Below, piece after piece: positions 1,032-63,917 of a stretch of DNA of 64,000 nucleotides. Location: the NCBI GenBank assembly GCA_902529885.1, contig CABZYC010000001.1, forward strand, positions 156,177 to 220,176. The letters are read 5' to 3'. A model generated the notes under the pieces. That model saw only the letters and a program-made list of their open reading frames with translations, had not been told where the DNA came from and did no database searches. This DNA is from an uncultured Candidatus Woesearchaeota archaeon. Its GTDB lineage: Archaea; Nanobdellota; Nanobdellia; Woesearchaeales; GW2011-AR9. A program made the position numbers and the translations under genes. Every line of letters begins with the position of its first letter. The stretch's first letter is position 1.

Positions 1032-1964
1032 TTATATAAATGCATCGAGTTGTTGCAAAAAGACAGTTGCATACACGCCCCGCGGCAAAAAAAAGTGAAG
1101 CTTAACAGTCTCTCGACGAACTTTGCACGACACAATATCTGCAGTCACTACTGTCTCACGATCACCAGCGGGTGCTTCAACACCGTACCAAGAAGGCAGA
1201 ATTAAATCTGTATAAGGAACCGTTTTTCTAGGAGTGTTACTTCGAAATGACCCATAACTATATTCAACAAGTCTACCTTTGCTTAAACCTGAAACCTTTC
1301 TATTCCAAAGGTATGCTTGGTACGCGCGTACTGCAAACTTTCTATCAATCAGAGGGATCTGTTGTAAAGATAATTTATGATCTGGTAATTTAGAAATAAC
1401 TTTCCGCACCCAATCCCTTTCAGGAAGTTTGCTTATTATGTTTACATCACCCCATTTCTTTTTAAGTTCTCTTCGTCGACGCGCAGCAACACCTATACCC
1501 CCATGAGTACACGCAGTTTTCACTGCCCGTTCAAAATCGCCAGACAAAATGTGATGAACAAAAAAACTGTTAACGCCTTCCAGAGGTGTCGCTGACCAAA
1601 ACCGTTGTTCACCAAAATAGTTCGTGAAACTATAAGTTTTTGGACATCGTTTATACCGTGAAACATTTAAATCACGAAGTACCACTTTAAACTCATTAGA
1701 AATAATGTCTGTTGACCTAATATGACGCGGGACTTTTTTAACAAAAACAAAATCTTCGTTTTGGATTATTTGTTCACTTGTCCCATACTGGACCGACACA
1801 GATTTACTATCTTTCATGCCAGCAAACCTGATATTAAATTTTCGTGCAAGAACAGAGCTTGACACATTACATTTTTTTACTTTGTACAAAAAATATTTGC
1901 CGCCAGATGGCATATCAATATGTTCAATAACACTGAAATCTTGTGCGGTCGTTTTAAGTTTCAT
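1032..1964 (-). CDS. truD: tRNA pseudouridine(13) synthase TruD
   Basis: Motif RFAGMKDSKSVSVQY matches the TruD catalytic signature (Y/F)AG(L/M)KD(K/R)xAxTxQ. The size (310 aa) is consistent with archaeal TruD. Confidence 0.6.
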   Translation of the reverse strand: MKLKTTAQDFSVIEHIDMPSGGKYFLYKVKKCNVSSSVLARKFNIRFAGMKDSKSVSVQYGTSEQIIQNEDFVFVKKVPRHIRSTDIISNEFKVVLRDLNVSRYKRCPKTYSFTNYFGEQRFWSATPLEGVNSFFVHHILSGDFERAVKTACTHGGIGVAARRRRELKKKWGDVNIISKLPERDWVRKVISKLPDHKLSLQQIPLIDRKFAVRAYQAYLWNRKVSGLSKGRLVEYSYGSFRSNTPRKTVPYTDLILPSWYGVEAPAGDRETVVTADIVSCKVRRETVKLHFFLPRGVYATVFLQQLDAFI

Positions 1965-1972
1965 TGGAAAAG

Positions 1973-2086
1973 TGGGGACGCTGGGATTCGAACCCAGATC
2001 TGCTGGTTACACCACAGCTAATCATCGTTGCCTCATCGCTCCACATTCTGGAGCCAGCTATTCTAACCAGGTTATACTACGCCCCC
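1973..2086 (-). tRNA. tRNA-Trp(CCA) with an intron of about 40 nt between positions 37 and 38
   Basis: Reverse complement reads GGGGGCG ... GCUGG CUCCAGA [intron AAUGUGGAGCGAUGAGGCAACGAUGAUUAGCUGUGGUGUA] ACCAGC AGAU CUGGG UUCGAAU CCCAG CGUCCCC A. Acceptor stem is 7 bp with one G-U. Anticodon stem is 5 bp (GCUGG/CCAGC) with loop CU-CCA-GA. T-arm is CUGGG-UUCGAAU-CCCAG. D-stem pairing is weak. No CCA is encoded. Confidence 0.65.
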
Positions 2087-10275: not shown

Positions 10276-11340
10276 ATGATATTTAATTTATTCAACTTAC
10301 TTCTTGGTAAAAAACATAAACAAACCCAAGAAAAAATCATCTCTAATTCTAAAAGATTTTTCCATATATTATCTAAAAATAAAAAATCTAGAAAAACGTC
10401 TTATGATATTGATCATCAAAAAACAAGGCTTGAAACAATTAGATGTTTTAAAGCTAATACTGACCTAGGTTTAAAAGAAGATAATTATATCTACCATATG
10501 CTTGAAAAAGAACTAAATGAGATACATAGGTTGAAAGCGAATTTATGTGATCTTAAAAAGATGTTCAATAAAGAAATAGATATATGTGATACAAAAAAAG
10601 ACTGTGCTAAATTACTTAAAAAAATGTTCTCTAAATCATTTAATAATATTAAACTTGAATTAGAAGAATTACTTTCATGCCATAAAAGGTCAAATATTCT
10701 GTTCGATTTAGACCGTCGTGTAAGGACATTAAAAATTATTGAAGATGCAGGAATAGTGTACGATGTTGATCCAAAAAAATTAAAAAATCAACATTACAAA
10801 AATCGTAATATCCAAAATCTTATTTTTATTCATCAAAAACTAAATGAGATGAGCTTTCTTTCAAAAATAAATAATTCGCTTTTAATGAAACATGCCAATA
10901 CTGCTGAAATAAATAGAGAGATTATTAAGTTTAAACAAGACCTACTTAAATTTGACTATAGGTTACAGTCCTGGAAATTTTATTTTATTTACTCTGTATC
11001 TAGGGGAAGACCTTCTAATGGGAGATTTACACTAGATGCTTATTTTAAGGATTCAGAATCAGTGATAAATCACTACATGGGAATAAATGGTGTCAATCAA
11101 GATAGATTATTAAAAAATATTAATGATAGAATAATCATAAGATATTTCAAAAAAAAGGGCGAAGTAAGCCTCCGGTCTATTCATGAGCCATATTATTTTG
11201 TTTCTGAAATAAATAAGCTTCTAAATCAGATTAAAACTATTGAAAATAGCATACTAGACATTGAAGGAGACTTAAAGAAAGTAATTCAGAATGATAAAAG
11301 ATTAAAAAAGGATTCTAGAAAGATCAAACAAAAAAAATGA
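10276..11340 (+). CDS. Lysine-rich hypothetical protein (ORFan) in an AT-rich island
   Basis: 354-aa uninterrupted ORF, K/N/I-rich, no recognisable motif. Local composition is visibly more AT-rich than the flanking housekeeping genes. Confidence 0.45.
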   Translation: MIFNLFNLLLGKKHKQTQEKIISNSKRFFHILSKNKKSRKTSYDIDHQKTRLETIRCFKANTDLGLKEDNYIYHMLEKELNEIHRLKANLCDLKKMFNKEIDICDTKKDCAKLLKKMFSKSFNNIKLELEELLSCHKRSNILFDLDRRVRTLKIIEDAGIVYDVDPKKLKNQHYKNRNIQNLIFIHQKLNEMSFLSKINNSLLMKHANTAEINREIIKFKQDLLKFDYRLQSWKFYFIYSVSRGRPSNGRFTLDAYFKDSESVINHYMGINGVNQDRLLKNINDRIIIRYFKKKGEVSLRSIHEPYYFVSEINKLLNQIKTIENSILDIEGDLKKVIQNDKRLKKDSRKIKQKK

Positions 11341-28970: not shown

Positions 28971-31900
28971 ATGGGTGCAGAAAGGCCAAACCTAGAAAAA
29001 ATATTAGCAAATATTCCAGAATTATTTGTTAAACCAATAGCACCAATTGTAGAATATAATCCTCAAGATACCGTGGAAAAAGCATTAACAGAAGTAAAAC
29101 GGTTAGAAGCATTAGGTAAAGAATATCAAGAGTCGTATTATAATCATAAAAACGAAATCCAAAATCTATCAGTTAACAATATTGAACAAGTATTGCAGCA
29201 CATCCAACAATTACACACGGCAACCGCAAACATCGACATATTACGTGATCTAATCATGCATGCTAATGATAATGTGATTAATCTTACAAAAGAAGAGTAT
29301 GATGTTGACGGTTTTGAAGAAATAAGTGACATTCAAGATAAAATTTTCAAAGAACAAAACGCGTTAAGAAAACAATGGTTCGGCACATGGCGGTTCGCAA
29401 AACAAATCAAAGTATTATCTAAAAAAATGGAAAAAAGTTGGGAAGCCTGGAGCAATTTACAACGTTACCCTAAAGTACCGTCTACAACTACCCCTGTAAA
29501 CAGTATTGTCTCTGACTATATTAGCAACCATATTGTTGATATTATGCGGCACAGATGGGAATACATTATCAATGATATACCAGATTACCAAACAAATGCT
29601 GATTTGTCAAAAAAGCAGAACGAAGTTCTTGAAGATGCACACAAAATCTTTTGGAGAAATAAACAAATAGAACACATACATTCTGCTGCCGAAAATTTCA
29701 AACATGTCTCACAACTTGACCCAGACCTAAAATATGTAGAAGAAATAGGAAAATTCACACCAAGCATACGACAAGTCGATATGACTCAGTTCAGTTTTGA
29801 AGTATTTAAAAACTTACCAACCGAGATTAAAGCACCAATTCAAGACCTGGTACACAATGAGTTCACGTCACAGTTTTTGCTTACCCCAGAGCATACTAAC
29901 TCATCACAAATCTTGGGTGAAAAGATGATGGAATTTACAGATGAAAAATCTATATTGTATAACGCTGTGAATTTCTGGAGAGAAAGCGGCATGTCTGGCC
30001 AAAAACCATATATTAGACGAAATTACCATAGTGAAAAAACAGATGCACAAAATTATTTTGATAAACTCGAAACGCTAACGCACCCAGCGTTACAAACCCT
30101 TAAGAAAAATCTTTCTAACAATGATCACGATAGCGAAAATACACACGAAGCCGTAGCTCAATTAATCACTGAATTATTAGATGGTACGTCTGAAGAAACA
30201 TATTTCGCGCTTAATAGTATTGATGGTATTACCGTGCCTGACCACCTAGTTGAAAAGATTACTACAAAACTCGACCTATCTCCAGTACATAACAAAGAAC
30301 TTTTTCAAAAAACACTCGATAAAATTACTCGGAGAAACACAGATATCTCTACCTACAAGGAAGTTATAGATAACGTCATGGAATATGATCGTTCAGTTAC
30401 TAAGATCAAACAAAGTATGGATGACCCATCCAAGATTGATCGATTAATACATTCCGTATGTAGTGCCCAATATACTATTACTAATAAAGATAAACAATCA
30501 CAAAGCCTTGCAATCATGAACGTTGTTAAAGATACACCGTACGAATTATCCAGCAACGTTATATCAAAGATTCGCAACATCTTTTTTGCTGACCTCGCTA
30601 ATGTATCAGGGCATACTAGAAAAGCCTTAGACAATTTTTATGCTATAACTAAACTATCAAGCTTGTACAACCATCCTGAGTTACAAAGTATAATTGAAAA
30701 TAGTTCCTACACACACTTAATCGACGACCCAGACCAAATAGAATCATACATGAAAGTGATTACAAAACCAAAAATTGGAACTAAATTTGACCAATTATCT
30801 TCATCTCGGAGAGACATAATACGTCGAACAGCAGAGACTGCGTATAAAATAAATAAGGATTTCAGCGACCATTTCATTGAAAACATGGTGATGAAAGAGC
30901 GGTCAATGGCAAAAATGTGGTTATTAAACAGGTCATTAACATCAATTAGTAACCATAGTGGGTTAGAAAAACACATACTCAGTATAACACCTAATGAAGC
31001 GTATAAAACAGTAACACTTTTTGGACTTGTTCGACCCATCGTTGACAATAAATGTACGCAAGATTTACAGCAAATATTTGAGTCGAGTGACAACGTTGTA
31101 GACGAATACCACAGGTTGCGAGACATACAAAGTTCAGCGGTACGCAAAAAGACGTTACAAAAGCTTCAAAAGCATGTTGGACAAGCAGCAGTTTTCAAAA
31201 ATCAAAAAGGAGAAATCGCGAAAAAACGGTATGAACAACGTATATCATCAATTAATGCCACTTTAAACAGAGAACGTACTAATGCTGTCGAAACCGTGTT
31301 ACGTGACACCGTTAAACGGAACGTAGAAAAGATTGTGGGAAAACCGATTAACATTGATGTTAATGAAGATATCATCAACGCAACATTACTGTATAACGAT
31401 ATTACTAAAAATAAAACATTGTTAAGAGATATTATTGTATCATGCACAGACGGCACATATAAAGCATACTCTGATGATAAGAACATTGAATATCTTACAG
31501 ACCTTCGAAATACATCCATCAATGTTGATGCATGGATTGAAGGGGTCACACAAACGTATAAACCGCAGTTGGTACAAAACATCAAAGAAAAAATTCAGTC
31601 AGAAATACAACACCATAAAACTGAAGCTAAAAAAATATTGTGCAAGAATGGGATTGAATACAAAACCTTTGAAGAAGCATATAAAATGTTACAAAATATC
31701 AATCAAGACGATGCCCTTGACCTCAAGACACAAATTCAAGCAATCAAAGGGTTACAGACACGAGACGAATGCAACAGTTTTAGTGATGTTACCATCTACC
31801 TAGAACATGACCCACTCAAGATATTACAAATGGGTAATTATTCTACGAACAGTTGTCTTGGACTCGGAAAAGGTAACGCATGGTCAACCGTGGCAAACGC

Positions 31901-32156
31901 TTTGGACAGTAATAAACAAGTCTTATACGCAGTGATGAACGGAGAAATCATTGGTCGTAAACTGATCGCGATTAATAATAACAAGAAGATGGTACAATAC
32001 AGAACGTACAGTGACTATGTAGATTTAGATCTTGACAGTATGTTTAACACATACCTTGACACTTTTGCGGACATAACCAATATTGAACGGGATACGAAAG
32101 GTACAGTGAGCACCATACTTGCGCAACATTGGTATAACGACGGCATCTTAAGCTAA
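28971..32156 (+). CDS. Large hypothetical protein (1061 aa ORFan, predicted cytoplasmic, helical)
   Basis: Long uninterrupted ORF with its own TATA-like box upstream. No TM helix, signal peptide, P-loop or other recognisable motif. Confidence 0.5.
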   Translation: MGAERPNLEKILANIPELFVKPIAPIVEYNPQDTVEKALTEVKRLEALGKEYQESYYNHKNEIQNLSVNNIEQVLQHIQQLHTATANIDILRDLIMHANDNVINLTKEEYDVDGFEEISDIQDKIFKEQNALRKQWFGTWRFAKQIKVLSKKMEKSWEAWSNLQRYPKVPSTTTPVNSIVSDYISNHIVDIMRHRWEYIINDIPDYQTNADLSKKQNEVLEDAHKIFWRNKQIEHIHSAAENFKHVSQLDPDLKYVEEIGKFTPSIRQVDMTQFSFEVFKNLPTEIKAPIQDLVHNEFTSQFLLTPEHTNSSQILGEKMMEFTDEKSILYNAVNFWRESGMSGQKPYIRRNYHSEKTDAQNYFDKLETLTHPALQTLKKNLSNNDHDSENTHEAVAQLITELLDGTSEETYFALNSIDGITVPDHLVEKITTKLDLSPVHNKELFQKTLDKITRRNTDISTYKEVIDNVMEYDRSVTKIKQSMDDPSKIDRLIHSVCSAQYTITNKDKQSQSLAIMNVVKDTPYELSSNVISKIRNIFFADLANVSGHTRKALDNFYAITKLSSLYNHPELQSIIENSSYTHLIDDPDQIESYMKVITKPKIGTKFDQLSSSRRDIIRRTAETAYKINKDFSDHFIENMVMKERSMAKMWLLNRSLTSISNHSGLEKHILSITPNEAYKTVTLFGLVRPIVDNKCTQDLQQIFESSDNVVDEYHRLRDIQSSAVRKKTLQKLQKHVGQAAVFKNQKGEIAKKRYEQRISSINATLNRERTNAVETVLRDTVKRNVEKIVGKPINIDVNEDIINATLLYNDITKNKTLLRDIIVSCTDGTYKAYSDDKNIEYLTDLRNTSINVDAWIEGVTQTYKPQLVQNIKEKIQSEIQHHKTEAKKILCKNGIEYKTFEEAYKMLQNINQDDALDLKTQIQAIKGLQTRDECNSFSDVTIYLEHDPLKILQMGNYSTNSCLGLGKGNAWSTVANALDSNKQVLYAVMNGEIIGRKLIAINNNKKMVQYRTYSDYVDLDLDSMFNTYLDTFADITNIERDTKGTVSTILAQHWYNDGILS

Positions 32157-42475: not shown

Positions 42476-44524
42476 TTAAGTCTTGTCATTCAAATCAGCG
42501 TCCAGTATCTCTAAATAATGTGTATGTTTGTCAATTGAATGTATCTTTGAATTAGTTAAACTAATTTTTTTATTGAATAAAGGGCAATCTAATACTAATG
42601 TTTCAAATTCTCCACCTTCACCTGCAACATGTAAACCATTAACCTTTTCTAACTTGCTTAGTTCCCTATAATCTTTATTAGTTATTATCCTTGCGAGCCA
42701 AGAGCTGTCAAGACCGTCTGCTGCAACCAAGGTCATAATGAACTTGAAATCTGCACGAAACAGTTCGTTCATTTGGTCATGCTGCCCTTTGTTCCAACAA
42801 GGTGCAAATACTTTTAAGCCAACTTGATCACATAACATTTCTACACGGTCGCGCTGATATGTGCTTGAAAGTGCACCTACTATAACACCTTCAGCACCCA
42901 TTAGTTGTACCTTTAACAGCCCTTCTTTCAAGTCCTTAAGCTCAACTTCTTTCTCGCCCATGGTGTTCACCTTAACGTGTGGTATGCCCATTGACTCACA
43001 TTGTAAGGAAGTTAGTTCAATGCCATGATGTTGAAACATGTACGAAAATTGGTTTTCAGTCATTATTGTTAAAGCTGAATGTATAAGGTATTTCTGTTGT
43101 GACATAATGTATGCAGAATATAAACTATCTTTGCCACCACTTAATAGAATAGATAAGCGAGGCATTCGACCATTAAAATGTTTGAACAACCATTCACTTT
43201 TTTTGTAACCTTTTGTAACGCGCCTTAATGCATCAGACACCCTGCTACCGTATTGAGCAGCTTTTTTTGGTCTGAAAGCGACTAATTTAATTAAACCATT
43301 GTCATACATTGATTCACGAAAAATATCTTTCCCTAGCGTGTGCATCTTATATTTTACAGGAATCCGTAATGCATAAGATACTAATTCATGATCTAAAAAA
43401 GGTAACCGTACTTCTACACCGGCTTGCATTGAAACAATATCGTCCCTAACAAGATCTCGTTCATACATCTTACGTAAACCTGATAAACACTCCCTTGAAA
43501 TATCTGCACTTTTTTTATGGCGATCATATCCCGCAAAAATTTCTTCGCTACCAAGCCCAGAAAAAACAACTTTTGCACCTAACTTTCTTGCTTGTAAACA
43601 AGCAGCGTAAAGTGTTACTCCTACTTCTGTTTTAACAACATTACAATCATTTATCATGTTAGAAACAGTCACCGCATACTCTTTTACAGTATCATCATCT
43701 AATTCTACTACTTCTAAATCCCACCCATAATGGCCACACACATTGATGCTTGCTTCAAGATCAGAACTATTTGAACCATTTGTGCAAGCAACTGTTACAC
43801 AAGTAAATGGGACATTCAATTTATCTAATAATAATGCAATTGCTGTGCTGTCAACACCGCCACTAAAAAGGACGGCTATCTTTTTGGTCGGGATACGTTT
43901 TTTTACTGCAGACAAAAATAAGTTGTACACATTACTTTTTATAAGTTGAATATTATCCTCTAATACAGGAGATGTATCAAAAAAAGATCTTTCCTTCTTC
44001 AACATAACTTGGTCATACACATATATTAATCTTGGATGAACTTCAATGGGGTTTTTTAACACATTAGGTTCTGATGCAAAAAAAAAACCATCTGTCAAAT
44101 CATAATATAACGGTTTTACCCCTAAAACATCTCTAAACAAGGTGTACACACCATCTTTCAAGTATACACCGGCATAAACACCATCTAATTCATCTATCCC
44201 TTCAATCCCTTTAAGATCCAATAAAGCACAAACTAATTCTGCATCATTAGAAACTTTTAAAGAATATTTTTGTGCTAATACTTCCCAATTATAAATCTCA
44301 CAATTGATAACAAGTGCGCCATCTCGTTTTATAGGTTGTTTCACATTGCCAACTACACTGTGCAAAAAATGTAATAAGTATTCGTTACCATCTTTAACAT
44401 TAGAACAAAGCTTATTATCAATTAATAAAGTGCTACCATCTCTTCCTCTGTGGCTTAATCCATTAAAAGAGCGAGCAGCATACTCACTTAGAAAATTGCC
44501 TTTCCCTCCTGATATCCCACACAT
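42476..44524 (-). CDS. Fusion protein: asparagine-synthetase-like glutamine amidotransferase plus C-terminal Dph6-type (diphthine-ammonia ligase/MJ0570 family) ATP pyrophosphatase
   Basis: N-terminal MCGI (Ntn nucleophile Cys2) and HRGRDG. AsnB PP-loop LFSGGVDST. The C-terminal roughly 220 aa carries a second PP-loop LLSGGKDSLY and GEGGEFETLVLDCPLF, diagnostic of the Dph6/PF01902 family. Confidence 0.65.
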   Translation of the reverse strand: MCGISGGKGNFLSEYAARSFNGLSHRGRDGSTLLIDNKLCSNVKDGNEYLLHFLHSVVGNVKQPIKRDGALVINCEIYNWEVLAQKYSLKVSNDAELVCALLDLKGIEGIDELDGVYAGVYLKDGVYTLFRDVLGVKPLYYDLTDGFFFASEPNVLKNPIEVHPRLIYVYDQVMLKKERSFFDTSPVLEDNIQLIKSNVYNLFLSAVKKRIPTKKIAVLFSGGVDSTAIALLLDKLNVPFTCVTVACTNGSNSSDLEASINVCGHYGWDLEVVELDDDTVKEYAVTVSNMINDCNVVKTEVGVTLYAACLQARKLGAKVVFSGLGSEEIFAGYDRHKKSADISRECLSGLRKMYERDLVRDDIVSMQAGVEVRLPFLDHELVSYALRIPVKYKMHTLGKDIFRESMYDNGLIKLVAFRPKKAAQYGSRVSDALRRVTKGYKKSEWLFKHFNGRMPRLSILLSGGKDSLYSAYIMSQQKYLIHSALTIMTENQFSYMFQHHGIELTSLQCESMGIPHVKVNTMGEKEVELKDLKEGLLKVQLMGAEGVIVGALSSTYQRDRVEMLCDQVGLKVFAPCWNKGQHDQMNELFRADFKFIMTLVAADGLDSSWLARIITNKDYRELSKLEKVNGLHVAGEGGEFETLVLDCPLFNKKISLTNSKIHSIDKHTHYLEILDADLNDKT

Positions 44525-54007: not shown

Positions 54008-54285
54008 TTGTTAAAGAAATTGAGTCACCACAAGGCATCATCTTAGTACTAACTGACGATGTTTTATTAAACAAAAAATTTGTTGAAAATAAAAAAATGT
54101 TGAATTTTACTGTTCAATTTTATCAAGGTGAAAAAAAAGAAGTCAGTAAAGAAATGTTGAATGGTTGCCATATTATTCATGCTAGCGGTGATAAATCAAT
54201 CCAATTTTTAATTGATAATGGTGTTTGTAATGAACAAAATGTGAAAATCATTGCAGGTATTAAACATATTGAAATAATTCAATAA
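54004..54285 (+). CDS. DUF424/COG2412-like conserved hypothetical (usual neighbour of aIF2beta)
   Basis: 93 aa, 4-nt overlap with the aIF2beta stop. Confidence 0.4.
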   Translation: MIVKEIESPQGIILVLTDDVLLNKKFVENKKMLNFTVQFYQGEKKEVSKEMLNGCHIIHASGDKSIQFLIDNGVCNEQNVKIIAGIKHIEIIQ

Positions 54286-57200
54286 AATTGTGTTAAACCA
54301 GTTTGTTTTTCTTTCTCTCGACCAAATACTGCTTCCATATTACGTTCTAAAGTATGGATTGTCTCCTTAAGATAAGAACTAAATTCATATTCATCCACTA
54401 AACCTAAAGAAGTACCTAAATATTTTATAACACTACCGTGACTTATTGTAAAGATAATATTACTTCTAGTACATTCAGTGCATAAACCAGTTAATGGCGG
54501 ACGCCTATACTTTGTATTACAACTTGTACAACGAAAACCTTGCATACTAAATTTACGAAGGTTTCCTTTCATATCAGCTAACAAATGACGTTGTATTACT
54601 AATTGTGCAACATGACCCATATTAACAGCATCAATCTTTCGTGCAATCTCCATTTGACCTTGCAACTTTTCTTTCATGCTAGGTAATGTTTTGTATGCAC
54701 TGCACACAACTGCATTATTTAAATTTTCAACTTTGTGTGTATACCCAAAATCTTTGTATTGTAATGGTGTGTTCAAACGGTGGTTTAACTGCGTTATTTT
54801 TACTTCCCAAGGTTTTTTCAGGGAGTTTGCTGATTGATAAAATATGTGTGGGTATGACCATTCTACATCCATTCCTAACACTTGATCATCAACTTCTGAA
54901 GGATAAACTACACTAGTTAAAACCAAACAAGCATCCATCGTAGACCCTCTACTTGAAGGTAAAAAAGATTTACTGAAATTTAATAAGCCGTCCATTAATA
55001 ACATTATACAGGCTTCATCACCATCACAATCACGCCGTAAAGCTGCATGAAACATTGGGTGTGCAAGAAAACCTTGGGTTTTACTAAATCCTATTATCCT
55101 ACCTACTGTCCCTGCAGAGATGTGTGGTGCCAACCCAATAATTAATTCGCCTACTAAACCTTTGAAATTTATAGCGTTATAAAATGGTTCAGTATCATAT
55201 AAATAATTTAATTCGTCATCACAAAATTTTGAAATACGTGTTAATACATCACATGCACCTTCTTCAAGTTCAGTGTTGTTCGGAACAATAATATCTTGAG
55301 GGTAAATCTCTAATAATTGGTTCTCATTCTCAAGTTCTTTCCCATCAACATCTTTAGTATAACCTAACTCTCTCAGTTTTTCTATAGATGTCCCAATCTC
55401 TACTGGTTTAAAATGAGTTATTGGTAATTCAGTACAATCATACCTTGTAGTACCATCTTTATTAACAAAAATTTTATGTTTTGAACGTAAAAATGATTTT
55501 AAAAGGTGTTCTGGTATTTTGTTCCTACTACGAAGTTTTTCTACACCTTTTATTTTCTCATTCCAATCTCGTGTACCTAACATCTTTTTACAATCAGAAA
55601 AATACTGTTCAATATCAATATCAACACCATATTTTTGTGGGGTTGCATATTTATTTTCTAATGCCCATTCTTCGCTTAAAGGTAAACGTAACATTTTATG
55701 TTCTAACGCTTTGTTTAAAAATTTTAATTTCCCACCGTATCCAGCAATTGGAAATAGGCCATGTGGTGTACCCGCTAAACTTCTCATTTTAGCTTTTTCT
55801 GGTCGACCCATTCTTGCACCAATAAAAGTTCCTGCAAGATCTTTGAAAATTCCAGGTTTATTTAATTCTAATACATCTAACGCAGTACCGTCACACCATT
55901 TTTGTATTAATGAGAATGTGTATTGTAACACAGCATTTGTTTCAGTATCAACTTCGTAATCTTTTGTGTGTGGAATACCTAATTTTTCAGCTATATTTTT
56001 TACTTTAGCATTAAATTTTCCTTTACTAAAATTATTTTTGAAATATTTTAATTCTTCTGAAGAAATTAACCTCCAAAAAAAAGAATATTTTGGGTGCATT
56101 GGTAACCCGTTCAATGTGTGTAATAAAGCTTCTTTAAAAGATCCAGGTGACACTTTATTTGTTTGAGCTTCCCATTCTTCACATGTGTACCCACAAGGAA
56201 CAAGCATTGAACCATTTTCACTAAAATCACCATAATTAAACAAAATGTCACCAAGATATAATATTCTGTCCACTTCTTTTTTTATTTTGAGTGCAGCTTC
56301 ACGTGTTTGTAAAGATACTACAGAACCATTTTTAAGTAAAACTATAGGTCCATCTATTGTTTCACAACAAGTTATAGTTGCAGCTTTTCCTGGACGTTCA
56401 ACTTTTAATTGGGTTCCTATGGCAATAAAATTTTCCAACACTTCTAAAGTTGCAGGGTGTACAGCTGCTGCACTAAAACCTGATAATCTTGTACGACCAT
56501 AACGTAATCTAAAACCACCCACTGCTAAAGGATGTGTTAATACAGGCCTTCCTGCAACTATATCTGCAATAAATGTATCATTAGCTTTAACTGTATCACC
56601 ATCATCATTTTTTTTACTGTTTGCAGAATGAATTTTTTCTTTTAATTTTAAAAAATCACCCATAAAATTCCATTCTAAATCAAAATCGTTCCCCCATTTA
56701 TTAAGCCGTTTCCATAATTTTGGCGCTTTTTGACATAAACCTTCAGCTAAAACTAAAGCAACACCACCCCTAATTAAGTTTGTCTCAACACGTGGTAAGT
56801 CTTTGTAATTACTTACTTCTATACGTTCTGTAGAATCACCTGCTACTTCTATGGGTAAATTTTTTAACATAAAACTTAATTCATCATCACTAGGCCTATA
56901 CTGTAAATTTGTAACACGTTCATGGTAATCATTAACTTCTGTTACATACCTGTTAATTTCTTTTTCTGAAGGGTCCCATGAATGATAACCCATTTTGGTT
57001 CTAACATAATCTGCTAAAATTACTGATGTTGATGACGCAGTACCACCTGCACCACGTATTGGACCTGCATAACGTACCGCTAAATATTCCTTACCATCTT
57101 TACGTTTTTTAATGTCTATCCCAATAAAACCTTCTAATGGTGCAGCCACTATTCCTAACGTTAAATAGGCAAAACCTGTTCGTATGCCTACTTCAATAGC

Positions 57201-57518
57201 TTCTTTTTTATCTTTAAAAGTACAAAATTCTTGTTTAGCAACCGCTTCCGCAATCTTAAATCCTACACGCCAATCTAAAATACCATATTGTTCTTCATAC
57301 TCTTTTATTTTTTCAGGTACACCTGTTTCTAATAACTGTGGTGCAACAACACTTATCAGACCAAGTACACGGTCAACCATTGTTTCAGCAAGCATTATTT
57401 CTACTTTTGGTTCTGGATCAAGATTTTTACTTCGGGCTTTTTCTGCGACTACATAAGCTTGTTTAACTTTAGATTTAATACTTTTAAAATACAAATCCAT
57501 ATTATTATCTTCGCTCAT
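54279..57518 (-). CDS. polC: DNA polymerase II (PolD) large subunit DP2
   Basis: 1079 aa. Characteristic DP2 segments and C-terminal cysteine clusters (CTSC...CTECT). No intein. Confidence 0.85.
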   Translation of the reverse strand: MSEDNNMDLYFKSIKSKVKQAYVVAEKARSKNLDPEPKVEIMLAETMVDRVLGLISVVAPQLLETGVPEKIKEYEEQYGILDWRVGFKIAEAVAKQEFCTFKDKKEAIEVGIRTGFAYLTLGIVAAPLEGFIGIDIKKRKDGKEYLAVRYAGPIRGAGGTASSTSVILADYVRTKMGYHSWDPSEKEINRYVTEVNDYHERVTNLQYRPSDDELSFMLKNLPIEVAGDSTERIEVSNYKDLPRVETNLIRGGVALVLAEGLCQKAPKLWKRLNKWGNDFDLEWNFMGDFLKLKEKIHSANSKKNDDGDTVKANDTFIADIVAGRPVLTHPLAVGGFRLRYGRTRLSGFSAAAVHPATLEVLENFIAIGTQLKVERPGKAATITCCETIDGPIVLLKNGSVVSLQTREAALKIKKEVDRILYLGDILFNYGDFSENGSMLVPCGYTCEEWEAQTNKVSPGSFKEALLHTLNGLPMHPKYSFFWRLISSEELKYFKNNFSKGKFNAKVKNIAEKLGIPHTKDYEVDTETNAVLQYTFSLIQKWCDGTALDVLELNKPGIFKDLAGTFIGARMGRPEKAKMRSLAGTPHGLFPIAGYGGKLKFLNKALEHKMLRLPLSEEWALENKYATPQKYGVDIDIEQYFSDCKKMLGTRDWNEKIKGVEKLRSRNKIPEHLLKSFLRSKHKIFVNKDGTTRYDCTELPITHFKPVEIGTSIEKLRELGYTKDVDGKELENENQLLEIYPQDIIVPNNTELEEGACDVLTRISKFCDDELNYLYDTEPFYNAINFKGLVGELIIGLAPHISAGTVGRIIGFSKTQGFLAHPMFHAALRRDCDGDEACIMLLMDGLLNFSKSFLPSSRGSTMDACLVLTSVVYPSEVDDQVLGMDVEWSYPHIFYQSANSLKKPWEVKITQLNHRLNTPLQYKDFGYTHKVENLNNAVVCSAYKTLPSMKEKLQGQMEIARKIDAVNMGHVAQLVIQRHLLADMKGNLRKFSMQGFRCTSCNTKYRRPPLTGLCTECTRSNIIFTISHGSVIKYLGTSLGLVDEYEFSSYLKETIHTLERNMEAVFGREKEKQTGLTQFY

Positions 57519-58942
57519 GAAAAATCCATTACTGTTACTTCCCTTGTTTTTAAATTAACAACTGGCACCATACAAGGTTCAGGTTCATGCCCTAATTTTT
57601 CTTGAAATTTAGTACATGCTTGCCAGCAGCTCCCACTCATTACTGTTACACCTTTATAATTTGCAACTTTTGAATAATGTATATGCCCTGTGATCATGAT
57701 ATCAGGTATAACTTTAATTAACAATGGGTCTTCTTCATAAGCAGGAAGGTAAGGTGTACTTTTGAATGCTGGAGCTAAATGACGTCGTTTTAACAAAAAT
57801 TGTTGAATTAAATCTGCACGTTTATACCCTCCATTATTCCTTATACTGTCTATATTAGCAACATAATAATCAAAACTGTAACCATGATACATTAATACGT
57901 TAATACCATCAAAATCTTTTGTTTTACCTACTTTAATCATACTTGGATTACTTACTAAATGAACATTTTCTATATCATGTAAAGATTGTGTATATTCCTT
58001 AAAAAAAACAGGTTGAGGCTCAGCTAAATGAACTACATCATGGTTTCCCGGACAAATAAAAATTTGAATATGGGATGGTATTTGTTTAAGGTAAGAAGCA
58101 AAAGCTTCATATTGACCCACAATTGTATCAATAGTAAGTTCTTTTTGTTGGTTTGGATAAATACCAATTCCATCAACACAATCACCAGCAATAAACAAAT
58201 ATCTCACATTCTGAGCTGTTTGTTTTTGAAGTGCACCACCATATTCTCCTTTTAACCATTTAATAAAATTCAAAAATTCTTTTTCCATAAAATTATCTGA
58301 ACCAACATGAACATCACTTATGAACACTGCATGTTCTTCAATTGGAGACATTTTTATTGACCTGTTATGTGGAATGTCTGGCCATATTATCTCATTAACA
58401 AATATTACACCATCACTACCTGTTCCAACAACACCTATCACCTCATCAAATATTATATCTTTTGCATCAACAAAAATGTCTTTATCTTTCATAATTATTG
58501 CTTTACAATTTGATTGTGGGTCTTCTAAAGTTATGATTAAATTCCCATTTTTTGATTCCTTTACATCTGAAACCATCCCTATTATAGAAACATGTTCTCT
58601 ATCTTTTTTACGTTTTAAACGTTGAATTGAAATTATATTTTTCATTGATTTATGAGTACGTATTAAATCATGCAAAAATTTATATCTTGAAGTGAATACC
58701 CGTTGAAAATCTTGAACATTATACTTATATCCTTCATTCTCAAAATTGATAACTATTTCGTGATTTAAAGATAATATTTTAACATTTTTATCATCTTGTA
58801 CAATGTTAACATCATCAATCTCTGCTAATAGTTTCTCATCAAGACCTTCTTCAATCATTTCTTTTGTTACAAATATGCCTTTATCAAACAATTTTTGTAT
58901 TAAATCACTTTTATTCATTGTGTATCTGTAATGATTTCTCAA
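57515..58942 (-). CDS. polB: DNA polymerase II (PolD) small subunit DP1 (Mre11-like phosphoesterase)
   Basis: Calcineurin-like phosphoesterase motifs (GDxHG-like ISDVHVGS, GDCVDG, GNHD). 475 aa, 4-nt overlap with DP2. Confidence 0.8.
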   Translation of the reverse strand: MRNHYRYTMNKSDLIQKLFDKGIFVTKEMIEEGLDEKLLAEIDDVNIVQDDKNVKILSLNHEIVINFENEGYKYNVQDFQRVFTSRYKFLHDLIRTHKSMKNIISIQRLKRKKDREHVSIIGMVSDVKESKNGNLIITLEDPQSNCKAIIMKDKDIFVDAKDIIFDEVIGVVGTGSDGVIFVNEIIWPDIPHNRSIKMSPIEEHAVFISDVHVGSDNFMEKEFLNFIKWLKGEYGGALQKQTAQNVRYLFIAGDCVDGIGIYPNQQKELTIDTIVGQYEAFASYLKQIPSHIQIFICPGNHDVVHLAEPQPVFFKEYTQSLHDIENVHLVSNPSMIKVGKTKDFDGINVLMYHGYSFDYYVANIDSIRNNGGYKRADLIQQFLLKRRHLAPAFKSTPYLPAYEEDPLLIKVIPDIMITGHIHYSKVANYKGVTVMSGSCWQACTKFQEKLGHEPEPCMVPVVNLKTREVTVMDFS

Positions 58943-60116
58943 TCAATTCTTTTAATTTCACCAATAATTTACCGTCAAGACCTAATGAAATTTCTCTTGT
59001 ACGCCCATACCTACCTTTACTGATTATTTTAGCATTAATTATTCCAAGCATATCAAATTCTGCTAACATATCACTAATACGTCTTTGAGTAAGTACATTG
59101 AAATTAACTTGTTTACATAATTTTTGATATATATCATATATCTCCCCAGTAAACATTACTGTGTTTTGAGGATGTAATACAAGTATACTATACAATACTA
59201 GTTGGAATTGTTTAGGTTGTGTTGTAACTGCATGAATTATTTTATCAGTTTCAATTTTACTTTCAGCTTCATCAAGATGATTTACTGTAACATGTTCAGA
59301 CCCATATCGTTCTGCAAGCTCGCCAGCAACACGTAATAAATCAATCGCCCTTCTTGCATCACCATGCTCACGGGCAGCATAAGCCGCACATTTTTCTATC
59401 ACACCTACTTCTACAACATTTTCTCTAAAAGCACGATCACTCCTTTTACGTAAAATATCTTGTATCTGTAAAGCGTTATATGAAGGAAAAATTATCTCTT
59501 CTTCAGATAAACTGCTTCTTACCCTCGGATCCAAATTTTCTGCGAAAATCAAATTGTTACTTATTCCTACTAAAGCAATTTGTGCATTTTTTAATTCGGC
59601 ATTAATACGTGTTAAATTATAAAGAATTAAATCACCAACCTTACTTGTTAATTGATCAATTTCATCAAGTGCTAATAGAATTATTTGTTTTTTATTATCA
59701 ATAAGTGTATAAAATATGTTATATACTTCATCTGTTGGTAACCCAGTTGGAGGAACATCCTTACCTAACTCTTTAATTAACTGTGCAATAAGCCTATATT
59801 CTGTATCAGCTATACGTTTAAGTTTACAATTAACATATATTGTTTTCAAAGGAACACTATTATCTGCAGCAATACGTTCTATACTTTTCAGAACATATTT
59901 TATGCTTAAAGTTTTACCTGTACCTGTTTTTCCATATACAAGTAAACTACTTGGTCTTTCAACCCGTAAACTTGGTGCAAGAATATTTGCAACATCTTGG
60001 ATTAAATTTTCACGATACATTATTTCTTCTGGTGCATAACTAGATAATAATAAACTCTTATCAAGAAATATGCTATCTTTTGTCAGATAATTCTGGAAAA
60101 AATTGTTTACATTCAT
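58911..60116 (-). CDS. cdc6: Orc1/Cdc6 replication initiator
   Basis: Walker A GKTGTGKT, Walker B LDEID, C-terminal winged helix. Start set at the internal ATG at 60116 (MNVNNFF). The longer track ORF would run through an ORB element. Confidence 0.85.
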   Translation of the reverse strand: MNVNNFFQNYLTKDSIFLDKSLLLSSYAPEEIMYRENLIQDVANILAPSLRVERPSSLLVYGKTGTGKTLSIKYVLKSIERIAADNSVPLKTIYVNCKLKRIADTEYRLIAQLIKELGKDVPPTGLPTDEVYNIFYTLIDNKKQIILLALDEIDQLTSKVGDLILYNLTRINAELKNAQIALVGISNNLIFAENLDPRVRSSLSEEEIIFPSYNALQIQDILRKRSDRAFRENVVEVGVIEKCAAYAAREHGDARRAIDLLRVAGELAERYGSEHVTVNHLDEAESKIETDKIIHAVTTQPKQFQLVLYSILVLHPQNTVMFTGEIYDIYQKLCKQVNFNVLTQRRISDMLAEFDMLGIINAKIISKGRYGRTREISLGLDGKLLVKLKELIEKSLQIHNE

Positions 60117-60480
60117 ATAACACTCGCCCCTCAATTTCTTATGGAGAATTGCTTTGCTTAAATAAATTTGGTTATTTTGCCATATATTCATCATTAAAAT
60201 CAATATTATAACTACAAAACAACATACATAACAACAAATTGTCGTCAATAAACAACTAAAAACATTTTATTTATTCTTTATCTCTATACTTATATATATA
60301 TATCTATATTGTAAATAATAATAATAATAATAAGAAAATAAGTTAAATGCAATTATTATGTCTATTTGTGTGTATGTTTACCCTCTCTATTTTTTATTTT
60401 TTGAAAATGAAATTATGTTCCATAGGAAATGAGGGGGTAGGTGACGTAAATTTATAAGTGATAAATATATTCTTTATGAT
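60117..60480. promoter_or_regulatory. Putative chromosomal replication origin (oriC): two inverted ORB elements flanking an AT-rich unwinding region
   Basis: ORB-like elements at 60125-60148 (minus orientation: TTCTCCATAAGAAATTGAGGGGCG) and 60418-60442 (plus: GTTCCATAGGAAATGAGGGGGTAGG). Each has the TCCA-N-GGAA dyad plus a G-string. Between them lies about 270 bp that is mostly A+T, with (TA)7 and (TAA)6 tracts. The region is directly upstream of cdc6 and near mcm and polD. Confidence 0.7.
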
Positions 60481-61329
60481 ATGGTTTTAGAATCAATGTT
60501 GAATCCTTTAAAGATAAGAGAGCATCCTTTAGAGTTTTCATTGATTGGTTTTGTGACAACTATCATTTCATTTTATTTGTCTTTTCTTGTTTTTCTTGAT
60601 GGTGCACCTTTTTTAGCATTAATATTGATTATGTTTGGAGCATTACCAACATTGTATGTTGGATTACAAAATGAGCATGCAATGGAACTTTATTTGAAAA
60701 GTGAATGGGGCATTCTAAAAAAACATGGGCAATACATTACAATGATTGGATCATATTTTTTAGGTGTTTTTTTAGCGTTTGCCTTACTTGTTGTAATTAA
60801 CCCAGTTTCAGTGAATGAAGTTATGTTTGAACCACAAGTAAAAGCTGTGAATAGTTTAAATAGTCATGTTAATGGTCAAATTACTAGCGAACAAAAAACA
60901 TCTTTCATTTTATTAAATAACATGAGAGTATTACTTTTTACGATATGTTTTAGTTTTTTGTATGGTGCGGGTGCAATATTTATTATTACATGGAATATAA
61001 GCACGGTTGGAATGGCTACAGGTGCAGCCTTATTAAAAAATATAGCCATATTTAATTCGGTTGGGTTATCAGCATCTAACCTACCTTTAATGGTTGGCGC
61101 TATAACACACCCTTTTTTAAGGTATATGGTGCATGGTGTACCTGAGTTATTAGGATACTTTGTAGGTGGTCTTGCTGGTGCATTAATTAGCAAAGCCGTA
61201 ATTCATGATACACTGAATAATAAAGAAACTTTATTAGACATATTTAATGTAGTTGCATTAGCAGTAGTAATTATTTTTGTAAGTGCTTTTATTGAGGTTT
61301 ATGTGTCACAAAGACTATTTATGTTATAA
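60481..61329 (+). CDS. Polytopic membrane protein (SpoIIM/DUF95-like)
   Basis: Six predicted TM helices, 282 aa. Confidence 0.35.
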   Translation: MVLESMLNPLKIREHPLEFSLIGFVTTIISFYLSFLVFLDGAPFLALILIMFGALPTLYVGLQNEHAMELYLKSEWGILKKHGQYITMIGSYFLGVFLAFALLVVINPVSVNEVMFEPQVKAVNSLNSHVNGQITSEQKTSFILLNNMRVLLFTICFSFLYGAGAIFIITWNISTVGMATGAALLKNIAIFNSVGLSASNLPLMVGAITHPFLRYMVHGVPELLGYFVGGLAGALISKAVIHDTLNNKETLLDIFNVVALAVVIIFVSAFIEVYVSQRLFML

Positions 61330-61905
61330 TATTTTGACTTTACCAGGCATATTTTGATATAAAATACCGTGTTTTAGAAAATGTTCAATTATATTTTCAA
61401 CATTACCATACTCTTTAATTATTTCTGATATAAGAACACCACTTCCTTTATCATTATTTTGAATAAATCTTACTATTACCTCTGAATTGATCGATTTTTG
61501 TTTTTTTTCATTAACCTTTTTTTTAACAGGTTCAATTTTGATAGTTTTATGTGCCGACAACCATTTTTTGTCACATTCCTTAATTATCTCTGGAACAATG
61601 TAAACTTGTTCTTTATATGCACGAATTTTACCTATCACCCTGACTGTGTTTCCAGCAGAGATTTCTTTAATTAAAGGGAACTCTTCAAAGATACGTAATA
61701 AAATGCTTGCACTACCATCATCAATAACTATGTTTGCTGTAGTTCCAACTTGTTGTATACGTAAGATTGTGCCGATAATGTGCACTCTAACTATTTTTGA
61801 TTCGTTAAGTAGAAGTACATGGTTTGGTGTTGTATTATTTCCAATAACATATTTCCCTTTTTGAAGGTCAATAATACGTATTTTGCATGCAGGGTAGCGG
61901 TTCAT
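61324..61905 (-). CDS. OB-fold plus winged-helix protein (RPA32-like), co-transcribed with MCM
   Basis: Beta-rich N-terminal segment (VRVHIIGTILRIQQ...NTVRVIGKIRAY) consistent with an OB fold, and a helical C-terminal domain. 4-nt overlap with the mcm stop. Confidence 0.35.
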   Translation of the reverse strand: MNRYPACKIRIIDLQKGKYVIGNNTTPNHVLLLNESKIVRVHIIGTILRIQQVGTTANIVIDDGSASILLRIFEEFPLIKEISAGNTVRVIGKIRAYKEQVYIVPEIIKECDKKWLSAHKTIKIEPVKKKVNEKKQKSINSEVIVRFIQNNDKGSGVLISEIIKEYGNVENIIEHFLKHGILYQNMPGKVKIL

Positions 61906-63917
61906 AATCGTTGTATAAAACCTCGTTTAGGCTCAAATATGTCTCCCATCCGACTTAATTTAGTAATAACTTCTTCAGCTTCATCTTTAGATACACCTTT
62001 TTTTTCAGCTTCAATAAGTAATGATTCAACAGAAATTTGTTTACTATCTTTTTCAAGGTGGGCAATCAATTCTTTAATAAAACTTATTTTGCTTCGTTGT
62101 GTAGCAGTAATTTTACTACTAATTCTATCAATGTCAAGCAGACCAGTTTTATGGTCTTTCGCAATTTGATTCAAACTATAATTTAAAAGTTCAATGGCAA
62201 CTTCTGCATCTCGTTTACCCACGCTTCTTGCTAACCTTAATTTTGCATGTGCTTCAGATAAACGTACTAATGCTTCAAGTTGACGTGCAGTTATAGGTAT
62301 ACTTTTTACACCATGCTCATCTTCATTACCAGTATTACGCATTTGAACATAATATTCTTTTATTTTTTCAATAGCAGCATCTGTTAATGGCGGCTTACTT
62401 TTACTTCTAATATACATGAAATATTTTCTTAACAAATCACTTTCTATTGGAGCAGTAGCTTTTTCAGGAGTTTTATGTAATGATAATACAAAACCAGCTA
62501 ATTTAGCATCTGTCTCCTTATTAGGATTATCTTTAACTGCAAAAATTAAATCAAAACGGTTAATTAAAGTTGGCGGAAGATTAATTTGGTTAGCTACTAA
62601 ATCGAAAGGATCAAAACGCCCATATTTTGGGTTTGCAGCAGCAAGCAAAGTTGTTTCACATCGTAACGTTGCTTGGATGTTAGCTTTACTAACACTCACT
62701 GTCTGTTGTTCCATTGCTTCGTGTAATGCGGACCTGTCTTCTTTGGTCATTTTGTCCATCTCGTCAATGATAGCAAACCCTTGATTTGCAAGTACTAATG
62801 TACCAGCTTCTAAACTCCATCCACCTAAAAATTCATCTTTAACAACACTTGCAGTAAGCCCTGCAGCACTTGCACCTTTACCACTTGTGAACCGTGCTTT
62901 AGGTGCAACTTTACTCATACGCTTTAACAATTGACTTTTACCAGCACCGGGGTCACCAATTAATAAAATGTGCATGTCTCCACGTGTAACCACTCCATCC
63001 GGACGAGCTTTTTTACAGCCTCCTGCAAGTTGTAACACTAACGCTTTTTTAATCATTTCATGCCCATAAATACTTGGTGCTAAACTTTCCTTGACATCTT
63101 TAAGTACGGTTGACCTTTTAGCAATTTCTTTGATACGTTTTAATTGTTCAGGTTCAATGTTAAGTTCGTTAGGATCATCATCTACAGGCTCAATAAAGTT
63201 TGCTTCTAATACTAAATCGTAACGAGTACTTCTCCCACCTGAACGTAGTTCAATAGGAACTTCACTTATCCACCCATACAATCTAACTTTGCTACCTGGT
63301 GAACATTTACGTTCAGTGATAGGACTCACTAAATCACCTTTTAAAAAAACGTTTATCCGCTTAGGTTGTGAACCATCAAGATTGTCAGGAGATTCTTCTA
63401 AAACGAGACGTTGACCATCAACCATTTCTTTATTAATCTCTTTAAATTTACCTTTACGCCCACAACTACAACGTGAAGGTTCTTTGAACTTTTGATCAAG
63501 CTGTAATACACTTATCATGTTTCCACATGATGGACACTCGAACTTTGCACGGCTAACATGCGGTCGTACATCAGACTTTTGTCTTACAATACCTGTACAC
63601 CACAAAAATTTACCAAGATGATGTGATCGTACTGCGTTAATATCGACATGTAAACTTGTGGGCAAATTAAAAAATCGTACATGAAAATTGTCAACCTTTT
63701 TAGGAAGGTCAAACTCTTTAATGGCATATTCTGCAGCTTTAAGAGCATCTTCAGGTCGTTCAACTAAATCTTCAGCAAGTTCTGTGTTGATTGCAACTAA
63801 TAAAGTAAAATCACAAGATATACTTTCATAGCCTTTCCTAACACCTTCAAGTAGTTCTGCATAATAATTATGTTCTATAAATTCTCGGAACCCTTGAATT
63901 TGTTCGTCAACATTCAT
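61902..63917 (-). CDS. mcm: MCM replicative helicase
   Basis: N-terminal zinc finger (CPSCGN...CSCG), Walker A GDPGAGKSQLL, Walker B IIDEMDKM, arginine finger, C-terminal winged helix. 671 aa, no intein. Confidence 0.9.
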   Translation of the reverse strand: MNVDEQIQGFREFIEHNYYAELLEGVRKGYESISCDFTLLVAINTELAEDLVERPEDALKAAEYAIKEFDLPKKVDNFHVRFFNLPTSLHVDINAVRSHHLGKFLWCTGIVRQKSDVRPHVSRAKFECPSCGNMISVLQLDQKFKEPSRCSCGRKGKFKEINKEMVDGQRLVLEESPDNLDGSQPKRINVFLKGDLVSPITERKCSPGSKVRLYGWISEVPIELRSGGRSTRYDLVLEANFIEPVDDDPNELNIEPEQLKRIKEIAKRSTVLKDVKESLAPSIYGHEMIKKALVLQLAGGCKKARPDGVVTRGDMHILLIGDPGAGKSQLLKRMSKVAPKARFTSGKGASAAGLTASVVKDEFLGGWSLEAGTLVLANQGFAIIDEMDKMTKEDRSALHEAMEQQTVSVSKANIQATLRCETTLLAAANPKYGRFDPFDLVANQINLPPTLINRFDLIFAVKDNPNKETDAKLAGFVLSLHKTPEKATAPIESDLLRKYFMYIRSKSKPPLTDAAIEKIKEYYVQMRNTGNEDEHGVKSIPITARQLEALVRLSEAHAKLRLARSVGKRDAEVAIELLNYSLNQIAKDHKTGLLDIDRISSKITATQRSKISFIKELIAHLEKDSKQISVESLLIEAEKKGVSKDEAEEVITKLSRMGDIFEPKRGFIQRL

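Follow-up and report, generated by a model that had tools for sequence, protein, structure and literature searches.

The 64,000-nucleotide stretch analyzed here (the window: positions 156,177 to 220,176 of contig CABZYC010000001.1 in assembly GCA_902529885.1, from an uncultured “Candidatus Woesearchaeota” archaeon of the order Woesearchaeales) contains a gene for an Orc1/Cdc6 replication initiator whose upstream region has the organization expected of an archaeal chromosomal replication origin (oriC). The initiator gene (orc1/cdc6, hereafter cdc6; 58911 to 60116, minus strand) encodes 401 amino acids from an ATG at 60116 and is separated by a gap of 364 bp (60117 to 60480) from a divergent gene for a SpoIIM-family membrane protein. 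Within the gap, two origin recognition boxes (ORBs) stand in inverted orientation on either side of an AT-rich spacer, the presumed duplex-unwinding element (DUE).

The proximal ORB (CTCCATAAGAAATTGAGGGGC; 60126 to 60146, minus strand) has its core, TCCATAAGAAATTGAGGGG, at 60127 to 60145, and the distal ORB (TTCCATAGGAAATGAGGGGGT; 60418 to 60438, plus strand) has its core, TCCATAGGAAATGAGGGGG, at 60419 to 60437. Each is composed of a dyad followed by a G-string. The proximal element turns its dyad toward the AT-rich region and its G-string toward cdc6, its 5′ T lying 29 nt upstream of the cdc6 ATG and the element spanning −29 to −11; the distal element is inverted relative to it and points its G-string toward the SpoIIM-like gene, such that both dyads face inward and both G-strings outward. 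The pattern TCCANNRGAAAN{0,12}GGGG matches the window at these two sites only, when 0.03 matches are expected by chance. A weight matrix built from the ORBs of related loci, with the window excluded, scores the distal and proximal elements at 21.7 and 20.8 bits, respectively, versus 12.4 bits for the next best site in the window; we therefore recognize two ORBs and no additional mini-ORBs, none scoring above 12.4 bits in the spacer. The G-rich sequence AGAGAGGGT at 60380 to 60388 is an isolated half-site that probably arose by chance.

The initial annotation of this DNA, made from the sequence without database searches, had described two ORB-like elements in these places and in inverted orientation, and in this it was correct, as it was in matching them to the dyad and G-string pattern. 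It also called them near-identical, which is an overstatement: the ungapped arms agree at 19 of 28 positions, and those that agree are the ORB positions. A generic inverted-repeat finder, which reports 64 inverted pairs in 1.5 kb, does not place the ORB pair among the 25 longest, and the weight of the pair rests on the ORB motif, not on the identity of its arms.

The spacer between the ORBs (60147 to 60417; 271 bp) contains 18.5% G+C, compared with 34.8% for the window, and it is the window's lowest-GC and thermodynamically least stable segment at scales of 100, 150, 200, and 270 nt, which supports the proposal that it serves as a DUE. Its earlier description as some 270 bp of almost pure A+T holds insofar as the region is AT rich and forms the window minimum, but is exaggerated, the actual A+T content being 81.5% overall and 89% in the central 100 nt. 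The TA and TAA tracts noted previously are real and take the form of two microsatellites, (TA)9.5 at 60291 to 60309 and (AAT)9.7 at 60314 to 60341. The spacer has no match among Rfam families. Second in AT richness, with a GC content of about 0.18 to 0.22, is a part of the window occupied by an open reading frame (ORF) of 354 amino acids (10276 to 11340, plus strand), which has no Pfam match and no ORB near it.

Judged by its sequence, the product of the adjacent gene is an Orc1-1-type initiator. It carries the Pfam domains Cdc6_C, Cdc6_lid, and AAA, matches NCBIfam model TIGR02928 with 402 bits, and keeps the Walker A and Walker B motifs, the sensor region, and the winged-helix sequence GRYGRTRE. 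Among proteins of solved structure, it aligns over nearly its full length with Sulfolobus Orc1-1 (PDB accession number 2qby_A; E value of 4.8e-97) and Aeropyrum ORC1 (2v1u_A; E value of 2.2e-93), the two initiators that have been crystallized on ORB DNA.

For comparison, we assembled 80 related loci (L001 to L080), consisting of contigs from one genome per species found through relatives of the Cdc6 protein, and used further loci (L081 to L097) that include the independent metagenomic loci L082, L087, and L094. The Cdc6 relatives, whose identity ranges from 60 to 77%, belong almost exclusively to metagenome-assembled genomes (MAGs) labeled Woesearchaeota or Nanoarchaeota. ORBs are present upstream of cdc6 in most of the 80 loci and follow the family consensus tTTCCATAGGAAATcAAGGGGT (tTTCCAT[A/C][A/G]GAAAT[c/g/a]A[A/G]GGGGT). 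Their matches are concentrated within 1.5 kb on the upstream side of cdc6, only about four lying elsewhere in approximately 0.55 Mb, and a stricter pattern for the full ORB finds only 1 match in 521 kb outside these 1.5 kb. Because non-origin DNA is practically devoid of the motif, in the relatives as in the remainder of the window's 64 kb, the concern attached to the initial annotation, that ORB-like sequences might be frequent at non-origin sites, falls away.

Position and orientation are conserved along with the motif. The proximal ORB lies at −23 to −34 from the cdc6 ATG, in the same orientation, in about 30 related loci, and the second, inverted ORB of the relatives is found 300 to 1,290 nt further upstream; when the stricter full-ORB pattern is applied, an outward-facing pair is recovered in 28 relatives as well as in the window. 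The DNA enclosed by the pair in these 28 relatives has a median length of 576 bp and a median GC content of 0.20, versus 0.35 for the loci overall, and the spacer of the window (273 bp in this full-ORB comparison) is among the shortest. A more distant clade (L052 to L080, with about 60% Cdc6 identity) has a local architecture that differs from that of the window: a mini-ORB lacking the G-string is situated, inverted, between the TATA box and the cdc6 start (reading TCCAAGAGAAACAAAGGTTATATAAATATTTCG on the opposite strand), and a full ORB 120 to 180 nt upstream points toward it. Regarding the provenance of these loci, many MAGs with a Woesearchaeales-type cdc6-polD locus bear the title “uncultured Methanosarcinales archaeon,” and L045 and L062 are titled Deltaproteobacteria and Alphaproteobacteria, respectively; such titles probably reflect taxonomic mislabeling or bin contamination.

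Conservation extends to sequences inside the spacer. By k-mer enrichment on 29 inter-ORB regions, we detected two motifs, designated A and B. Motif A (family consensus TTATTTTCAATATAGAAAATAA) is a quasi-palindrome with 8-nt inverted arms whose core is present in 19 of the 29 inter-ORB regions, against 1.2 expected, and which matches 43 times in 95 kb of cdc6-upstream DNA versus 13 times in 512 kb elsewhere. It occurs in the inter-ORB regions of loci ranging from L003 to L079, including the more distant clade, and in extended form it was recovered from the origin regions of the independent loci L082, L087, and L094. The copy in the window (TTTACAATATAGATAT; 60300 to 60315, minus strand; core CAATATAG at 60304 to 60311) departs from the consensus at 3 positions and is flanked and overlapped by the two AT microsatellites. 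An AT microsatellite lies no more than 45 nt from 21 of the 44 copies in the relatives, compared with 1 of 511 AT-rich control positions, and we therefore view the (TA)n and (TAA)n tracts as part of the conserved core.

Motif B (ATTGCATTTAAC) is a 12-mer present as an exact copy at 60342 to 60353 (minus strand), the only such copy in the 64 kb. With 57 matches in the 95 kb of cdc6-upstream DNA versus 16 in the 512 kb elsewhere, it is about 19-fold enriched. Among the loci L002 to L059, many carry it between their ORBs, where two inverted copies often enclose motif A and yield the nested arrangement ORB(−) B(−) A B(+) ORB(+). Exact copies located away from the origin occur in L083 (position 1388) and L084 (position 3376). 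A role for motif B as a promoter was considered and rejected, the sequence being unlike the promoter consensus of the window (...CTTTTTATAG or TTTATAA at about −30). A literature search for motifs A and B returned unrelated primer sequences only. Our best guess is that the two motifs bind an origin-associated factor.

The genes around the gap are, for the most part, components of the replication machinery. Downstream of cdc6 and on its strand lie the gene for the small subunit of DNA polymerase D, DP1 (57515 to 58942), and, 3′ of it, that for the large subunit, DP2 (54279 to 57518); the cdc6-DP1-DP2 order is kept in 72 to 78 of the 80 loci and is presumably that of Pyrococcus as well, where we take the origin to lie upstream of cdc6, followed by the polD DP1 and DP2 genes. 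On the opposite side of the gap, the SpoIIM-family gene (60481 to 61329, plus strand) encodes 282 amino acids with a hydrophobic translation and a Pfam SpoIIM match of 8e-11. It is followed by a gene for an OB-fold protein of 193 amino acids (61324 to 61905, minus strand), whose best relative of solved structure is Pyrococcus RPA32 (PDB accession number 8c5y_B; E value of 3.5e-9), and by mcm (61902 to 63917, minus strand). The mcm and rpa32-like genes are part of a tbp-mcm-rpa32 operon that starts beyond the window; in L081 and some other loci, tbp precedes mcm. The order mcm, rpa32-like, spoIIM-like (reverse), origin, cdc6, DP1, DP2 is kept in 35 loci. As an observation in its own right, a gene for a SpoIIM-family, multi-pass membrane protein adjoins the origin and diverges from cdc6 in these 35 related loci.

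Of the flanking genes named in the initial annotation, those for both polymerase D subunits, Cdc6, the OB-fold protein, and MCM are in place, and PCNA, GyrA, Hef, and Hjc are encoded further left in the window. The origin is not, however, directly between cdc6 and mcm as had been claimed, since the SpoIIM-family and RPA32-like genes intervene, nor does the suggested GINS gene hold up: no window ORF scanned against Pfam has a GINS domain, and the candidate that neighbors the origin turns out to be the SpoIIM-family membrane protein, the OB-fold protein being RPA32-like.

In most of the window's genes, a TATA box (...CTTTTTATAG or TTTATAA) occupies positions from about −36 to −27 relative to the ATG, a spacing that points to leaderless mRNAs and that is shared by the box of the SpoIIM-like gene (TAAATTTATAAG; 60447 to 60458). 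The TATA-like box of cdc6 (AAATTTATTTAA; 60158 to 60169, minus strand) lies at −53 to −42, about 17 to 20 nt further upstream than in a typical leaderless promoter of the window, and, given this displacement and the position of the ORB at −29 to −11, the expected transcription start would fall inside the proximal ORB. The tightly conserved position of this ORB in about 30 species fits a dual role in origin function and regulation.

A third ORB lies near the helicase operon of a closely related strain. Locus L081, which is 95% identical to the right end of the window, contains a perfect ORB (TTTCCATAGGAAATGAGGGGGT; 1464 to 1486, plus strand) located 90 nt upstream of the tbp gene that heads the tbp-mcm-rpa32 operon; its equivalent in the window's coordinates would be at about 64555 to 64577 on the minus strand, about 0.55 kb past the right end. 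Lone ORBs in the same orientation are found upstream of tbp or mcm in the more distant loci L090 (position 759), L092 (2335), and L097 (5854). These sequences suggest that Orc1 also acts at the tbp-mcm promoter and may regulate the helicase operon.

We interpret the site as the chromosomal oriC of this Woesearchaeales archaeon, of the Orc1-1/oriC1 type and with the minimal ORB(−)/DUE/ORB(+) layout, and assign this reading, in which origin activity is a prediction from sequence, a probability of roughly 85%. It draws on motifs, arrangement, statistics, conservation, and initiator identity that are observed directly, and the candidate origin of the initial annotation is thereby supported both by the features of the sequence and by the recurrence of the ORB, its position, the inverted pair, and the AT-rich spacer in dozens of species.

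How such an origin would operate, from Orc1 binding and its polarity through MCM loading and firing to autoregulation, can be outlined by analogy with work on Sulfolobus, Aeropyrum, and Pyrococcus. At Sulfolobus oriC1, a single Orc1-1 monomer occupies each ORB with a defined polarity (PMC12141716; PMC3607249). ORB2 and ORB3, which lie on either side of the DUE in opposite orientations, are each individually essential and direct MCM to the DUE (PMC12141716). The winged-helix domain of MCM contacts ORB-bound Orc1-1, which sets the two hexamers opposite each other with their N-terminal tiers inward (PMC12141716; PMC3607249). In the initiator, recognition of the dyad falls to the winged-helix domain and that of the G-rich element to the AAA+ initiator-specific motif (bioRxiv 10.64898/2026.08.15.744077). 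In the window, one Orc1/Cdc6 monomer made from the adjacent gene would likewise bind each ORB with fixed polarity, its winged-helix domain contacting the TCCA-NN-GGAAA dyad and its AAA+ initiator-specific motif the G-string; since the dyads lie on the inner sides of the pair, each winged-helix domain would be turned toward the 271-bp spacer. ATP-bound Orc1 would then recruit two MCM hexamers onto the spacer with their N-terminal tiers face to face, the AT microsatellite core would melt, and forks would depart in both directions. Since the proximal ORB lies between the TATA box and the start codon of cdc6, its occupancy by Orc1 probably also represses cdc6 itself.

Strand composition offers a separate view of the locus, albeit with only 3.5 kb of the window lying to the right of the origin and 2 kb more being added by L081. 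Raw GC skew tracks gene orientation and has no inflection, and GC skew at third codon positions (GC3) is noisy across 51 related loci and lacks significance (paired P = 0.3). GC3 skew is biased by ATG and TGG codons, and we therefore used four-fold degenerate sites instead. In the 60 kb to the left of the site, the coding-strand G+T excess at these positions is 0.194 ± 0.095 for 25 minus-strand genes versus 0.006 ± 0.123 for 17 plus-strand genes, an asymmetry with Fisher P values of 1e-4 (G versus C) and 1e-8 (A versus T). If a G+T excess marks the leading strand, forks cross the left 60 kb in the leftward direction, away from the site; such a polarity on this side of the origin is what forks leaving either from the site or from a point further to the right would produce. 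The asymmetry on the left is uneven, in that plus-strand genes at 4.8 to 13.4 kb resemble minus-strand genes and those at 15 to 34.5 kb have negative values.

Other observations weigh against the interpretation of the site as an active oriC. No clear skew switch is seen in the 3.5 kb to the right, where the G+T excess of mcm (0.245) and the rpa32-like gene (0.138) resembles that of the minus-strand genes on the left and that of the SpoIIM-like gene is 0.071; further right, in L081, tbp has a value of 0.167, and the next two genes drop to 0.019 and −0.111. The relatives, moreover, disagree with one another. Among those with 10 kb available on each side, L082 has a switch-like pattern at its ORB pair (plus-strand genes at 0.07 to the left and 0.26 to the right, left minus-strand genes at 0.26), whereas in L084 and L085 an asymmetry of ±0.45 to 0.8 continues unswitched through the ORB cluster at cdc6. 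In addition, both the canonical oriC and Cdc6 are dispensable in Thermococcus kodakarensis (PMC5663688), and the genome may hold further origins beyond the window.

L084 and L085 (loci of 22 kb) are unusual in several respects. Their G+T excess is about +0.55 on minus-strand genes and −0.45 to −0.6 on plus-strand genes, with whole-sequence GC skew reaching −0.5, and they have two tandem distal ORBs; an exact-pattern scan between these and cdc6 finds no proximal mini-ORB core and neither motif A nor motif B. This lineage may have an origin that has decayed or shifted to another place.

The same doubts lend themselves to another explanation, in which the ORBs serve only as Orc1 operators of the two divergent promoters, those of cdc6 and the SpoIIM-like gene. 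The locus would then be a dormant origin or the relic of one, and replication would begin at another place or through recombination. The proximal ORB is held tightly at −23 to −34, between the displaced TATA box and the cdc6 start, and the lone ORBs upstream of tbp-mcm in L081, L090, L092, and L097 show that a promoter can have an ORB with no DUE beside it; the lack of a clear skew switch on the mcm side and the dispensability of the T. kodakarensis origin and initiator are consistent with this explanation as well. Regulation alone, however, needs neither a second, inverted ORB 270 to 1,200 bp away nor region-extreme AT-rich DNA between the two, nor conserved core motifs flanked by microsatellites within that DNA, and regulatory and origin roles can coexist. 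We therefore regard a purely regulatory function as improbable and favor an oriC that may also regulate its own initiator gene.

Extra orc1 genes with ORBs often reside in integrated elements in haloarchaea and other archaea, according to PMC3528665, and the locus could in principle belong to a mobile element with its own orc1, such as an integrated plasmid or virus, and be the origin of that element instead of a chromosomal one. Its neighbors, on the other hand, are single-copy core replication genes (those for polD DP1 and DP2, mcm, and the rpa32-like gene) whose order is kept in 35 species, its initiator is of the Orc1-1 type, and no integrase or viral genes occur among the ORFs scanned against Pfam, a scan that took in the ORFs of at least 100 amino acids except for about 20, mostly at 1 to 26 kb. 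Such a provenance is very improbable.

Finally, the notion of a chance inverted repeat of no specific function in an AT-rich divergent-promoter region, to which the weakness of the plain repeat (19/28, outside the 25 longest of 64 pairs) and the commonness of AT-rich intergenic DNA in the genome might lend some credence, is effectively refuted by the ORB statistics (2 pattern matches versus 0.03 expected per window) and by the conservation of position and orientation in dozens of species with Cdc6 proteins only 60 to 77% identical, and the spacer is, besides, the extreme of the whole window.

Returning to the origin, it is conceivable, if rather speculative, that it amounts to more than ORB-DUE-ORB. 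The core of TTATTTTCAATATAGAAAATAA within AT microsatellites, often bracketed by inverted ATTGCATTTAAC, could bind an origin-associated factor that is a functional analogue of the Sulfolobus ucm/UBP system, and the two ORBs at promoters, the third one upstream of tbp-mcm-rpa32 and the one over the cdc6 transcription start, could directly couple Orc1 occupancy to how strongly the genes for the helicase, the single-strand-binding protein, TBP, and the initiator itself are expressed.

Elsewhere in the window, three features merit brief mention. Rfam calls a 114-nt tRNA (46 bits; 1973 to 2086, minus strand) that ARAGORN does not report and that probably carries an intron. An ORF of 1,061 amino acids (28971 to 32156, plus strand), directly 3′ of the PCNA gene, has no Pfam match. 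In a protein of 682 amino acids (42476 to 44524, minus strand), glutamine amidotransferase and asparagine-synthase domains are joined to a diphthamide-synthase domain (Diphthami_syn_2) at the C terminus, apparently by fusion.

By its sequence, the site is an ordinary, though well-preserved, example of an archaeal oriC, with a textbook layout. Its kind is already known, since oriCs have been predicted automatically in the phylum and genome papers assume the origin to be at orc1/cdc6: the Ori-Finder-Arch survey predicts oriCs in the Nanobdellota, the phylum containing the Woesearchaeales (bioRxiv 10.64898/2026.08.15.744077), and a 2026 preprint on complete Nanobdellota genomes rotates them to orc1/cdc6, a text search of it finding no mention of ORBs, oriC, or GC skew. 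As the likely replication start of a widespread, uncultured DPANN lineage, the site can serve for genome orientation, coverage-based estimates of growth rate, and vector design. Only the conserved core motifs of the DUE and the ORB at the tbp-mcm promoter go beyond the textbook, and they provide concrete sequences with which to seek origin-binding factors or initiator-coupled regulation.

With respect to the ORB motif, the family consensus agrees with the published consensus for Archaea (CTTCCAGTGGAAACGAAAGGGGT; PMC4153887, Table 2) and with that of the Methanomassiliicoccales (GTTCCAGTGGAAATGG-AGGGGTA; PMC4153887, Table 2), and it agrees in its dyad with the reverse complement of the Pyrococcus ORB1 oligonucleotide (TTCCAGTGGAAATGAAACTCTGGGGGG; PMC1904270); the euryarchaeal consensus has been given as GTTCCAGTGGAAAC-AAA----GGGGG (PMC1868953). 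By their sequence, the ORBs of the window are canonical, with a short dyad-to-G-string spacing and a central dinucleotide of TA rather than GT.

(i) The Pyrococcus abyssi and Pyrococcus furiosus origins have an identical ORB dyad (TTCCA-NN-GGAAAT) followed by a G-string (PMC1904270). They differ in that the G-string comes about 8 nt after GGAAAT, as opposed to 3 to 4 nt here, and in having many mini-ORB repeats, whereas the window has two full ORBs only.

(ii) The ORBs of the Methanomassiliicoccales, although from a different phylum, match those of the window at 19 of 23 positions (GTTCCAGTGGAAATGG-AGGGGTA versus GTTCCATAGGAAATGA-GGGGGTA), share the shorter dyad-to-G-string spacing, and likewise form inverted pairs beside orc1/cdc6.1. 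The central dinucleotide of their dyad is GT or CT, and that of the window is TA or TC.

(iii) Sulfolobus oriC1 resembles the window in having two inverted ORBs, each with a dyad and a G-string, that flank an AT-rich DUE beside orc1-1, and in its initiator, which is a close homologue (E value of 4.8e-97). Both also have a conserved non-ORB motif in the middle of the DUE, which in Sulfolobus is ucm (PMC12141716), and motifs A and B recall ucm in position by this analogy. The sequences differ: the central motifs here (TTATTTTCAATATAGAAAATAA and ATTGCATTTAAC) are not those of ucm (TTATACAAAC), which, with at most 1 mismatch, matches the window 17 times when 16.5 matches are expected and has 0 matches in 60147 to 60417. 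The spacer is 271 bp here, compared with 130 bp for the ORB3-DUE-ORB2 region of Sulfolobus, and the origin of the window is itself without a third ORB.

(iv) The predicted, Cdc6-type origins termed Type I by Ori-Finder-Arch resemble the site in the window in lying in an intergenic region next to an initiator gene and in having ORBs, two of them inverted around a DUE. For validated origins, ORB(−)/DUE/ORB(+) has been described as the smallest structure with which an archaeal origin functions (bioRxiv 10.64898/2026.08.15.744077), and the arrangement upstream of the woesearchaeal cdc6 gene suggests that the pan-archaeal system of ORBs and Orc1-1 has been kept almost unchanged in these reduced genomes.

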